Shown piece after piece: positions 30,998-56,782 of a stretch of DNA of 64,000 nt. Location of the stretch: positions 64,001 to 128,000 of the IMG/VR virus record IMGVR_UViG_3300050821_007134; one strand, given 5' to 3'. Origin of the DNA: a virus. Every line of letters begins with the position of its first letter. Within the stretch, counting starts at the first letter, position 1. The notes under the pieces were generated by a model. That model worked only from the letters and a program-made list of their open reading frames with translations, was not told where the DNA came from and ran no database searches. A program made the position numbers and the translations under genes.

Positions 30998-32512
30998 ATG
31001 GCCACTCTAATTCACGGGATTGCCGCTTCAGAAAATATTGACTCTTCGGGCGAAAGAATCATCATTGCCGGTATGGATATTTCCAGTCTTGAAAAAGACG
31101 GAGTTTTCAACTGGGAACACAAATCTGACCAACCAGCTCAAGTAGTTGGTAAGATATTGAAAGCAAAGAAGATTTTCTCAGAAAAAGACTGCGAAAATGA
31201 GCATGAAAAGCGCTTTTGGGAAAAATGTGGAGTTCCATTCGTCTATGTAATGGGCGAACTTTTGGATGACTATAAAGAATCAGCCAAAGAAGTGGCCGGT
31301 ACCTTCCGATACGATCATGATCACAAAGACCGCGACGAACGCAGTATTTCGAACTTCTCTATAGAAGGGGCTAAAATCAACAAAGTAGGAATGGACGTTC
31401 CTAATTCTATTGCGCGCAAGGTCACGATTACTGTCCATCCCTGTAATAAAGTGGCCATCGCCACCCTTTACCCTACAGATAAAAAATCACATTCCAAAAA
31501 AGATGATATAGATTCACTATTTAAGACCGAAAGTACGGAAATTGAACTTTTCAAAGCAGAAGATCTCGATTATGGTAAAATGACCCTTTCTGAGGCCATG
31601 GCCAAAAAAGAAGATCCTGCCGTTCATGCAAAAGCCTTGGGAGTTGAACCTATGAAAAAAGAAGATATTGCCGGTACGACTGGCGCTCCCGCCAATGTCG
31701 CGCAACGCGCCCTTCCAATGATTAAAGCCGGTTCGGCCCCCGCGAAACCCAATTTAAACATAGTTGGCGAAAATGGCCATAAACTTGGTACGACTAAGGG
31801 CGGCCATGATATTCATAGTCACAAACGGGTCCACGAATATGGTCCAATGCATCCTAATGATCACCTTGAAGCTGCGAATATGCACTTTAATGCTGCTCAG
31901 GCCGCCCGAGACCCAAAAACAGGATCTCATCATATGGATAAAGTCCGTCTTCATATGGAAGCACATAAAACTTCCTCTCGTAGGGAAGAAAGACTTCATC
32001 CAAAGGAAAAATTGGCCAAAACCCTAGATGCTGGTTCTATGATGGCTCCGCCTGCCGGATTATCTGGAGGCGCCGCATTACAATCTGAAAGCCTCGGCGG
32101 GAAAATGCAAAATACTTCCTTTGGTATGAAATCCAAAGAAAAGAAAAATAAGTGGCTTGCTCGCGCTGAAGAAGAATATCAGGTTTGGAGCAAGAAAGAA
32201 GAATTCTCTGGCTTCATGCAGCAAAAACTCCCTAACTTTAAAAAACATGAAATCGATGCAATTGGTCGAACTGTCGCCCTCAAAAAGGGTATGGCCGAAT
32301 CAAAAAAATGGCTCGCTAAGTTTGGATACTCTGAAGATGGCGTTCCTTCTGGCACAATGGGCCAAAATACTCCCGGCGGAAGCGCTATTGCCAAATCAGA
32401 TATTATGATGGCTTCAGAACGAAGTAAAAACGAAATGCGCAAATTCTTCTCCAAAGCCATAAATGAACAAGCCAAAGATTTAAAGACAAAAGATATCAAC
32501 GAATTATGTTAA
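30998..32512 (+). CDS. prohead (maturation) protease with long C-terminal extension
   Basis: GIAASENIDSSGE...FNWEH...FSIEG...VTITVHPCN (HK97/SPO1-type protease motifs). Confidence 0.8.
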   Translation: MATLIHGIAASENIDSSGERIIIAGMDISSLEKDGVFNWEHKSDQPAQVVGKILKAKKIFSEKDCENEHEKRFWEKCGVPFVYVMGELLDDYKESAKEVAGTFRYDHDHKDRDERSISNFSIEGAKINKVGMDVPNSIARKVTITVHPCNKVAIATLYPTDKKSHSKKDDIDSLFKTESTEIELFKAEDLDYGKMTLSEAMAKKEDPAVHAKALGVEPMKKEDIAGTTGAPANVAQRALPMIKAGSAPAKPNLNIVGENGHKLGTTKGGHDIHSHKRVHEYGPMHPNDHLEAANMHFNAAQAARDPKTGSHHMDKVRLHMEAHKTSSRREERLHPKEKLAKTLDAGSMMAPPAGLSGGAALQSESLGGKMQNTSFGMKSKEKKNKWLARAEEEYQVWSKKEEFSGFMQQKLPNFKKHEIDAIGRTVALKKGMAESKKWLAKFGYSEDGVPSGTMGQNTPGGSAIAKSDIMMASERSKNEMRKFFSKAINEQAKDLKTKDINELC

Positions 32513-32656
32513 TCGTGCGGTGGGGATGGACCCGCGTGCCAACGAAGCATCCGTAAGGGTGGACGATCTCAATCCGCAGACCACGTTGGACAGATTTCGT
32601 AGAGCCATATGATTGAGGGCGACTACGATAGCCGGAATCAAGCCCGGCACACGGTT
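32511..32656 (+). ncRNA. candidate structured RNA with kissing loops and tRNA-like outer frame
   Basis: GC-rich intergenic stretch with six complementary segment pairs, followed by a terminator. Confidence 0.55.
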
Positions 32657-36184: not shown

Positions 36185-36193
36185 TGATATATT
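36185..36193 (+). promoter_or_regulatory. putative extended -10 promoter (TGnTATATT)
   Basis: 5 nt upstream of the tRNA-like gene. Confidence 0.45.
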
Positions 36194-36198
36194 ATTTG

Positions 36199-36281
36199 TG
36201 CGGGATAACTGGAGAACTGGTTGCACCAGACTGGCCTCATAAGCCAGAATACGAAGGGCCATGCTACTTCTCCCGCAACCA
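36199..36281 (+). tRNA. tRNA-Met/Ile2(CAT)-like, non-canonical D and T arms
   Basis: acceptor TGCGGGA/TCCCGCA, A-CCA end, anticodon arm CTGGC-CTCATAA-GCCAG; T-loop lacks TTC. Confidence 0.7.
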
Positions 36282-36289
36282 AATCATTA

Positions 36290-36935
36290 CGAATTGAGCC
36301 TGTGGGATGGCCGCCCACGGTCACAGCGCGGATAGGAGGCCCCCATTGCAAAAGATGGAAATATGTGATCCCGCGACGTGTAGTCCTACGATTATTGGCT
36401 AATTCTACAGTAGACGTAGCCCAGCGACGATACACGTCTGGGTTGGCTGCCAGAGCCGAGATTCACTGGACGCTACGGGAAATGCAAGTCCTCAAGATTG
36501 GCGACACAAGCTTGGGGGATGACAAATCAAGTTTCTAGGCGCTGTCGGGGTTGATCGCCCGCAAGCCTAAAAGAGGTACAACTGCGCCCTCGGAGGGGTT
36601 GAAATCCCTGGCAGTGATATTTCACGAGCTATCCCACGGTGACCTCGGTGGGAGTAAGAGATAACCGGGTACTGGGTCTATTCTGTTGGTAGCTTACTGC
36701 ATAAGGAATAGATGATACGGTGAGAGGTCCATAAATCAAAGGCGGCGCTGACAGTGAAGCGCTAAGGTAAGTCGGACAACTAGGCCATAAAGATCGTACA
36801 CCGAAAGTCAAACACGGGGACGCCCGTTAGTGAACGAATAGAAAACGGTGACCTTTGGCCATAATCAGGTGACTATACTCGTGCGCGAGCCAATTCCTGA
36901 TCCCTACAGGCGGTCCGCAAGGGCCGCCCAATTTT
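36290..36935 (+). ncRNA. candidate large ornate non-coding RNA (~640 nt)
   Basis: GC-enriched, no credible ORF, more than 12 hairpins, pseudoknot, GNRA-capped terminal hairpin. Confidence 0.65.
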
Positions 36936-36943
36936 GAGGCTTT

Positions 36944-37138
36944 ATGACTGGAATGATGCATAGTAGACGAAGAACTCCCACATGTTGCAAATGTTATGTT
37001 TGCAAATGCAAATGCCACAGAAAATTGACTCCCAAGCAAATAAGAGCCCAAAAAAGAGAATTGATTATTTGTTTTGCCTTATTGGGAGTGTGTGTTTTAG
37101 GTTTGATTTGGCTGCATTTTCATTACGGTGTTTCTTGA
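36944..37138 (+). CDS. small Cys-rich membrane protein
   Basis: GAGG RBS, CCKC..CKCKC, C-terminal TM. Confidence 0.4.
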   Translation: MTGMMHSRRRTPTCCKCYVCKCKCHRKLTPKQIRAQKRELIICFALLGVCVLGLIWLHFHYGVS

Positions 37139-37890
37139 GCGCTATATTGATTATGATTTTCTTTAATATAAGCGATTTTGCCTTTTTTATTGAATCCAAA
37201 GCCCCTAGCCAAATAAGTCAAAGTACATCGACAATGAGGATGAAGCCCAAATGCAGAGGGTGTATCATCGCCTCGCTTATGATATGACTGCTTTAATTCG
37301 CTGAACTTCCATACTCTGGGAGTAACTCCATCAGGCATCATATGAAGTCTTAAACATTCTTTACAAGTAGTAGAGTCTCGGACAATCACAAAAAATACCA
37401 AGGGATCTGAATCGTTGATACTCGAAGCTACTCGGGTAATATCCATCATTCTGCCAACATTACGAATTTTTGTACTTTCAGATTCAGCGATTAGTTTCAT
37501 ATGAGCTTTAGCTTTTCGCATTTCTTCAGAAACGACGGCTTGAATTGCTTTGTCATCAACTTTGTCGCCCTTAGCCTTAGCCTCTTTGATTAGTCCATCA
37601 ATGCTTTCCGTGAGGTTAGACTGAGTACGACTCTTGAGAGAATCAATATAGCCGTAAGTGCTTTCTAGCATAGACTTAAGAGCATCTTGTTCAAACATAT
37701 TGGGATTTTTATTAGCCATGGATTGAACGAATAAGTGTGCGAGACCTAAGTTCTTCTGACCAGAAATTGCAAGATATTTTTTATGGGCTAGACGTGGGAT
37801 ATGGCCAAGGAAGCTCAAAGCCAGTTTGTCGAACATGTCCTCAATTATGGTTTTGATAGCGTCTTTACCGCTACTGGACATGCCGATCAT
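37123..37890 (-). CDS. head morphogenesis protein (Mu gpF/SPP1 gp7-like)
   Basis: IAESE...TCKEC...LHPHCRC motif; downstream of portal. Confidence 0.75.
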   Translation of the reverse strand: MIGMSSSGKDAIKTIIEDMFDKLALSFLGHIPRLAHKKYLAISGQKNLGLAHLFVQSMANKNPNMFEQDALKSMLESTYGYIDSLKSRTQSNLTESIDGLIKEAKAKGDKVDDKAIQAVVSEEMRKAKAHMKLIAESESTKIRNVGRMMDITRVASSINDSDPLVFFVIVRDSTTCKECLRLHMMPDGVTPRVWKFSELKQSYHKRGDDTPSAFGLHPHCRCTLTYLARGFGFNKKGKIAYIKENHNQYSAQETP

Positions 37891-55990: not shown

Positions 55991-56511
55991 TTTTACGCAC
56001 ATTATTATTTATACTTGGGCTATTGGCCAAAGTTTCTGGGGTTGCAAAGTATGCCAAGAGCAGATTCGATAAAAACAGAAAGCTTATCGTTTTCGTCGCT
56101 CTTTTACCTCTTCGAGATCTTACTCTAAAGATCGCATTTAGAAGCGAAAAGGAAACAGGATGGAGAACATTAAAAATTACCATTCCTGCTGTTCTTACCT
56201 CTAGAGGAACTGGGCTTGGCGTACTAGAAGATATTTTAACTGGTTATTACGGAGAATACGAAGAAGCAATCACGGTCCTGAATGTTTCAGGATTTCGTAC
56301 TCCATGGAAGAAATTCAAAGATGAGCTTGTCGGTGTTAAGTATCCCAAGCTAACATACGAAATGGCTCAATTACTGGACGCTTTAGAAGTGGGACCTTAC
56401 GGTTCTACAAAAGATAAAGTAACTGATAATTCCGCAGAAAATGACAAACTTGCGGAGCAAATAAACGCATTGAAAAATTTATTAAATAATAAGGAGGCTA
56501 CCAATGGATAG
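55987..56511 (+). CDS. hypothetical protein
   Basis: coupled ORF. Confidence 0.55.
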   Translation: MILRTLLFILGLLAKVSGVAKYAKSRFDKNRKLIVFVALLPLRDLTLKIAFRSEKETGWRTLKITIPAVLTSRGTGLGVLEDILTGYYGEYEEAITVLNVSGFRTPWKKFKDELVGVKYPKLTYEMAQLLDALEVGPYGSTKDKVTDNSAENDKLAEQINALKNLLNNKEATNG

Positions 56512-56782
56512 AGAGAAATTAGAAGACCAATTGGACAAGATCGATCCACGTTTCCGTAAGGAAGCAAATGGATTAAGCGCCGCTGAACTTGAATCTAAGA
56601 TTAACCTCTTAGCAAAAGCCAGCGAAGCCAATGATCAATTGCAAGAAGACGACGAAGACCTCGCAGGAGCTAAAGCTAAAGCTTCCGAACTTGGCCGTCC
56701 TTATCGCGAAGATCGCAAGGCCTACAAACTCAAAACAAAATACTCGATTCTTCTGCTCAAGGAAAAAACCGGCCAATCATGA
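56504..56782 (+). CDS. small coiled-coil protein
   Basis: AAGGAGG RBS; helical. Confidence 0.6.
   Translation: MDREKLEDQLDKIDPRFRKEANGLSAAELESKINLLAKASEANDQLQEDDEDLAGAKAKASELGRPYREDRKAYKLKTKYSILLLKEKTGQS

Follow-up and report, generated by a model that had tools for sequence, protein, structure and literature searches.

A probable array of small folded RNAs with exchangeable inserts behind a tRNA-Met gene in a phage of the Mx1-like family

Does a long, hairpin-rich gap behind a phage tRNA gene encode one giant RNA or several small ones? The question is raised by positions 36290-36935 of a 64,000-nt stretch of DNA (the window), which is part of a record holding a complete 171-kb phage genome. 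Among cultured phages, Myxococcus phage Mx1 has the nearest portal protein (47% identity), and a myxobacterial host is only a guess. The gap lies between small genes found 3' of an endolysin-like gene and the convergent genes for head morphogenesis, portal and terminase. The original prediction had described this block as GC-enriched, poor in open reading frames (ORFs) and packed with helices, and had proposed a giant ornate RNA, either a divergent relative of GOLLD (RF02032) and ROOL (RF03087) or a new class. Much of the description stood up to scrutiny: all 13 helices of its list are present at the positions given, the block ranks second in GC content among the 600-nt windows of the 171-kb genome (0.53 vs 0.42), and the three short ORFs that overlap it are not conserved across relatives.

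The simplest objection to any RNA would be that the block holds chance hairpins or small protein-coding genes, a reading encouraged by the length of those ORFs (60-105 codons, across the region) and by modest fold energies, with z about -2 against shuffles for the whole region and from -0.5 to -1.9 for single units. Folding energy by itself is weak evidence for structure, and structure is accepted here because relatives show compensatory changes. Since stops break two of the three frames in relatives, the third giving a partial alignment only, and covariation is strong, this explanation is hardly credible and is largely refuted for the units called A, C and D below. The block is also absent from Rfam: a cmscan of the window gave no match at the gathering score and no meaningful one even at E<=10, and across the window and about 40 related loci the only Rfam matches were tRNAs and a weak tRNA-Sec hit to one scaffold RNA (E 0.55), the RNA units being unmatched. 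Searches of cultured phages by blastn with the region, unit C or M0 plus A as queries gave no real match. The claim that the region is conserved, structured, non-coding and missing from Rfam was thus upheld by the compensatory changes and the lack of an Rfam match.

About 80 loci of the phage family were gathered through a neighbouring head gene, and their comparison indicates that the region most likely encodes four or five short structured RNAs one after another (units M0, A, B, C and D, from 5' to 3') and not one giant RNA. Six close relatives carry differing subsets of pieces behind the same tRNA-Met gene. The tRNA is followed by an ORF and then A, C and D in L074; by another small RNA, A, D, a hairpin and a further RNA in L075; by C and D only in L002; by C and an unrelated RNA in L071; and by that unrelated RNA alone in L069 and L070. 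In the closest relative, L433, it is followed by M0, an A frame with a different insert, and a different RNA at the position of B. In this way the units are separately conserved and separately gained and lost, with boundaries mostly at A/U-rich linkers, and a modular array is strongly favoured. Comparison of the loci also shows A and D, at least, behaving as fixed frames around swappable inserts. When all possible helices of at least 6 pairs were considered, compensatory changes proved to be concentrated inside units (14 of 363 cells, against 2 of 375 between units), in a count that relies on crude pairwise alignments and on cells that are not independent. Our preferred reading, to which we assign a probability of roughly 0.6, is that small RNA genes, each independent of the others, are arrayed as cassettes at a hotspot of the Mx1-like phage family; their products would be cut from one precursor and may have a tRNA-directed role.

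The same comparison bears on the giant-RNA proposal. As with GOLLD and ROOL, we find structured and pseudoknotted phage RNA of unknown function behind a tRNA, and one continuous, modular large RNA with optional domains, perhaps assembling into an RNA-only multimer, would account for a contiguous GC-rich block placed right behind tRNA-Met as in GOLLD env-38, and for some near-palindromic loops. GOLLD has a variable 5' region and a conserved 3' region (bioRxiv 10.1101/2024.12.08.627333); here, unit order is constant and D comes last in four phages. Within the close clade the order of A, C and D is never shuffled, which is equally expected of a single modular RNA. Against this, the parts of the array vary independently, whereas GOLLD and ROOL each keep one conserved architecture; C and D-family RNAs are found on their own elsewhere; in L074 an ORF intervenes between the tRNA and A; L069 and L070 lack any unit; and compensatory changes between units are scarce. 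Searched against the whole genome, the model of the conserved 3' domain of GOLLD matched nothing at E<=10, nor did it match in the Rfam scans, and that of ROOL found no match at E<=10 by cmscan or in a genome search run without a positive control. The location directly behind tRNA-Met agrees with GOLLD and is not specific to it. A large RNA is therefore unlikely, and its assignment to GOLLD or ROOL, with pieces recombined among relatives and C standing alone, is probably wrong. Two of the proposed helices fail in the same comparison. The long-range pair 36319/36848 is contradicted by L074, which holds the 3' strand within a local stem and lacks the 5' partner, and the pseudoknot 36375/36431 by L433, in which the 5' strand is retained and the site of the 3' strand is taken by another insert. 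A minimum-energy fold of all 646 nt, in which M0 pairs with D, was dropped on the ground that D is present without M0 in three relatives.

Returning to the array, its 5' border is a divergent tRNA-Met(CAU) gene at 36199-36281 (plus strand, as are all units and linkers), with a cloverleaf recognisable from the sequence (fold z -2.9), an initiator-like U1-A72 pair, an encoded CCA and a long D loop. It had been presented as a tRNA-like gene. Neither ARAGORN nor Rfam called it, yet it occupies the place of ordinary tRNA-Met(CAU) genes and is homologous to them: at this locus in relatives a tRNA-Met is called by ARAGORN/Rfam and is linked to the window gene by an nhmmer profile search. The CAU anticodon arm, the CCA acceptor and this homology identify it as tRNA-Met, and only the T loop departs from the canonical form, as it does in L002. 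Between the window and L433 (693-768) the tRNA is strongly divergent while both flanks are nearly identical, which suggests that the tRNA-Met itself was exchanged or rapidly remodelled. An extended -10 promoter-like element at 36185-36193, 5 nt 5' of the tRNA start, marks a putative precursor start. Of 18 orthologous tRNA-Met genes, which are related and hence not independent cases, 14 have a loose TG-n-hexamer pattern 4-8 nt before them, whereas 3.6% of random genome positions match it. We infer that transcription, starting around the tRNA 5' end, continues through the array, so that the region is probably co-transcribed with tRNA-Met.

Unit M0 (about 36290-36410), a hairpin plus a multi-stem domain, has a single homologue, in L433, against which three short stems show compensatory changes, and is absent from L002, L071, L074 and L075; M0 and A may form one RNA. 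Unit A (36415-36521) comprises a clamp stem (36415-36420/36472-36477) round a pseudoknotted insert, a T-loop-like element and a hairpin at 36489-36518. Its homologues in L074 and L075 have covarying stems, compensatory changes being seen when three to four sequences are compared, and L433 retains the clamp and the hairpin around an unrelated insert. An A/U-rich linker (36522-36530, containing ACAAATC) comes next as a candidate cleavage site, and similar linkers bound units in L002, L071, L074, L075 and L433. Unit B (36531-36625), two hairpin domains with one T-arm-like loop, is the least supported of all, being proposed from position and fold (z -1.45); a search for homologues found none, L074 lacks it and L433 has unrelated sequence in its place. 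Models for A and C gave no matches beyond the Mx1-like family, and exact-pattern scans for A, C and the T-loop insert returned chance matches only, besides the known L002 contig.

Unit C (36630-36729) is a pseudoknot RNA of about 100 nt. It is built from a stem P1 (36632-36637/36648-36653), a 9-11-nt linker, a stem P2 that carries a variable domain, a 2-nt joint and a 6-bp pairing between the loop at 36641-36646 and the 3' end at 36724-36729, and every one of these elements is found in the window. In four relatives 96% of cells are paired and 10 pairs are changed on both sides, more than in any shuffle or slide control, for a structure drawn from those same sequences. A model built from these four, the window left out, covers 36628-36738 end to end (E 6.5e-6) and recovered three new members, and over nine members 52 of 54 pseudoknot cells are paired, with most positions swapping. 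All known members belong to the Mx1-like phage family, although C was not found in Mx1 itself, and in L135, L146, L414, L416 and L417 the unit occurs apart from A and D. The outline recalls the preQ1-II riboswitch, in which a hairpin and a linker are followed by an inner stem and a 3' strand that pairs with the first loop. The likeness is one of topology only: Rfam is unmatched and, unlike in preQ1-II, the 3' strand covaries freely and in most members does not form the ribosome-binding site of a following gene. On comparative grounds, C is a family defined here and new to the Rfam catalogue.

The position of C invites a different explanation, in which some of the units work in cis: by cleaving themselves as ribozymes, or by blocking nucleases, they would bring about maturation or protection of the tRNA and its neighbouring RNAs in the precursor. 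C would be the best candidate, since in L002, L071 and L416 this compact pseudoknot begins 6-15 nt past a tRNA 3' end. In the window, on the other hand, it lies far from the tRNA, and in L414 it directly follows an ORF. Its CGA-like linker motif varies among members, the strand order of HDV-like and pistol folds is unlike its own, and no Rfam ribozyme or riboswitch model matches in the window (E<=10) or in L135 (E<=1), with units A, B and C likewise unmatched by the models of self-cleaving ribozymes and riboswitches. Resemblances seen by eye to HDV-like, pistol and hammerhead ribozymes, to group I introns and to the c-di-GMP-I riboswitch were rejected because the order of strands was wrong or core residues were absent. 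Altogether, a role in cis appears improbable.

Beyond a second A/U-rich linker (36730-36738, with similar ones in L002, L074 and L075), unit D (36740-36905) is, judged by its sequence, a divergent member of a widespread phage family in which the top half of a tRNA bears a variable insert in place of the anticodon arm. A short acceptor-like stem is followed by C8-G9 and a 5-bp D stem with a GA...GA loop (36743-36762; D arm 36745-36762), a cargo of 101 nt (36763-36863) and a T stem (36864-36869/36896-36901) with a hairpin inside the T loop. Homologues in L002, L074 and L075 have covarying D stem, T stem and inserted hairpin. Two pairs of the D stem are compensatorily swapped relative to L074, where the stem of the T-loop hairpin also covaries; the T stem covaries in four phages, and the letters expected of the family's 7-8-nt T loop are present, split by the 19-nt hairpin insert. 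The acceptor-like stem has 3 bp in the window and 4-5 bp in L074 and L075 (3-5 bp in the clade), against 7 bp in the family. A family model matched D from 36736 with E 4e-4 in a 5-kb unfiltered search, through the D arm and stem only, whereas a search with default filters did not list it, and the model chose an alternative 7-bp closing pair (36736-36742/36852-36858) that competes with a cargo stem. Because the score is modest and another closing pair is preferred, what places D in the family is its D arm, together with covariation in the T stem and the order of its strands.

The D-arm pattern matched exactly in at least 120 viral stretches. Among the 120 viral matches listed, 97 close as a 7-bp acceptor-like stem and a 5-bp T stem round an insert of 45-254 nt, as compared with 6.75 when acceptor strands were swapped and 2.1 when the sequence was shuffled; in prokaryote genomes closure was found for 22 of 61 matches. 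The inserts fall into 112 clusters among the 119 members listed. In these members, picked for pairing so that pair counts are inflated, the acceptor varies freely with position 7 always G-C, and D-loop and T-loop types co-vary as in a tRNA elbow, including a change of G19-C56 to C-G. CCA is not encoded in the family (NCCA in 7 of 119), and a same-strand tRNA lies within 1 kb of 9 of the 119 members. The clade of D has two cargo types among four phages, the second being shared by L002 and L075. The frame of D in the window is closest to that of L075 (D arm 100%, T arm 82%) and its cargo to that of L074 (68% vs 43%); with the frame thus pointing to one relative and the cargo to another, this is direct evidence that inserts are exchanged between frames.

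A canonical second scaffold RNA occupies 32511-32656 (plus strand) between the head protease and DNA ligase genes (family model E 0.001-0.004), with the full 7-bp acceptor-like stem, a typical T arm and a terminator-like hairpin behind it, and its cargo is common to an RNA in L100. Two further look-alikes, in which the T loops have 8 nt and the D arms are altered, are found outside the window (G000:C1 about 31150-31290 and 37010-37150, minus strand). The cultured Caulobacter phage DMCA carries an unannotated scaffold RNA between transposase and integrase genes (PQ480021.1 25557-25683; L441 1501-1627), which makes expression, processing and function of these RNAs testable. A similar match in two pieces occurs in Pseudanabaena phage Pan3, and matches in Mx1 are weak. 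In L077 (3775-3894, minus strand) the T arm of a tRNA with a GAU anticodon is enlarged by an insert of about 47 nt, a feature reminiscent of the T-loop insert of D. No description of the family was found in Rfam or in the searchable literature, subscription journals being mostly outside the search.

Several known RNAs share features with these units. In tmRNA the order of strands is acceptor 5', D element, a large insert for the anticodon arm, T arm and acceptor 3', and D has the strand order of its tRNA-like domain. Unlike tmRNA, the scaffold RNA has no tag reading frame, no G3-U70 alanine identity and no encoded CCA, and neither ARAGORN nor Rfam reports a tmRNA. The T4 RNAs RNAC and RNAD lie within the T4 tRNA cluster and are processed like tRNA. 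Also called species 1 and 2, they are small non-coding phage RNAs of unknown function (PMC9697503). The array resembles them as a source of small stable phage RNAs of a tRNA region and differs in its several RNA classes, its swappable inserts and in having one family spread across many phage groups. Y RNAs of the YrlA type, bacterial and phage, are tRNA-elbow mimics matured by tRNA enzymes (PMC4201824). Elbow mimicry and occurrence in phages are common to them and to the scaffold RNA; in YrlA the acceptor-like arm is an internal hairpin and the Ro60 gene is adjacent (PMC4201824), whereas no TROVE/Ro60 gene was found in this genome, control genomes being positive, and the Y RNA models of Rfam gave no match.

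How would the array be expressed? Precursors of tRNA operons are cut and trimmed to each closed fold, and a similar route is proposed here. A promoter at the tRNA-Met 5' end would give a single precursor, host nucleases would cleave the single-stranded A/U-rich linkers, and trimming would stop at the closing structure of each unit, be it the acceptor-like stem, the clamp stem or the pseudoknot, to leave stable RNAs of 100-240 nt. Separate mature RNAs are a reasonably probable outcome. At the 3' border, a GC-rich closing hairpin (36909-36928) is a candidate weak terminator or 3' protector; it was not called as a terminator in the window, is followed by a long U run in L002 and by another RNA in L075, and is absent from L074. 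A 7-bp stem is a main determinant of RNase P cleavage (PMC4201824). Release of D by RNase P is consequently doubtful in the window, where the acceptor-like stem has just 3 bp, and plausible for scaffold members with the full 7 bp.

The RNAs might then act in trans, as fast-changing decoys or ligands of host proteins that recognise the shape of tRNA or attack it, such as anticodon nucleases, the constant frame providing stability and the variable insert specificity. Such a part in phage-host conflict over tRNA and translation is proposed tentatively, on the grounds that frames shaped like tRNA lack the signals for decoding or charging, that the inserts evolve rapidly, and that genes for a T4-type RNA ligase 1 (G000:C1 18994-19557) and a Thg1-like enzyme (56153-56566) are present in the genome. 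The two enzymes fit a pressure on tRNA, without a link to the array RNAs; RtcB, a CCA-adding enzyme and Ro60 were searched for in the genome and none was found. It is more speculative, and rather doubtful, that hypervariable payloads swapped into stable frames (tRNA top half, clamp stem, pseudoknot) make up an RNA-based counter-defence repertoire; if true, these exchangeable cassettes would be comparable to variable islands of anti-defence proteins. Patchy presence, rapid replacement, mosaic frames and the lack of C in complete relatives could also come from cassettes, near-neutral or selfish, that recombination between conserved frames has spread with little benefit to the phage. Pairing, including the pseudoknot and the D/T elbow, is nevertheless maintained by compensatory change and therefore under selection at the RNA level, and beside the array no mobilising enzyme or target duplication was seen, which makes this explanation quite improbable.

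What the stable small RNAs of phage tRNA regions do has been asked ever since T4. Several uncatalogued RNA classes can share such a region as a hotspot, as this locus shows; it also provides direct sequence evidence for insert swapping between frames of the scaffold family, and adds one pseudoknot family. It also advises caution, as arrays can mimic giant RNAs in long hairpin-rich gaps behind phage tRNAs. Directly 3' of the array, a Cys-rich ORF of 64 aa with a hydrophobic C-terminal stretch (36944-37138, plus strand) is similarly placed in L074, L075 and L151; seven distant relatives of it were found, of no known family, and none of the further loci reached through it has the RNA units. A non-coding element of about 200 nt just 5' of this ORF is common to L075 (2671-2895) and L151 (1906-2049), on the minus strand. 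The unrelated RNA of L069 and L071, here unit E, is a structured RNA of about 115 nt behind tRNA-Met (L069 6092-6206 and L071 3934-4048, on the minus strand) and is negative in Rfam. Distant members of the phage family have other stand-alone RNAs at the same hotspot, and unannotated structured RNAs behind tRNAs were seen there in L083, L084, L086, L087, L095, L097, L100, L120 and L122, some of them shared pairwise (L086/L120, L087/L097, L095/L122 and L083/L122).
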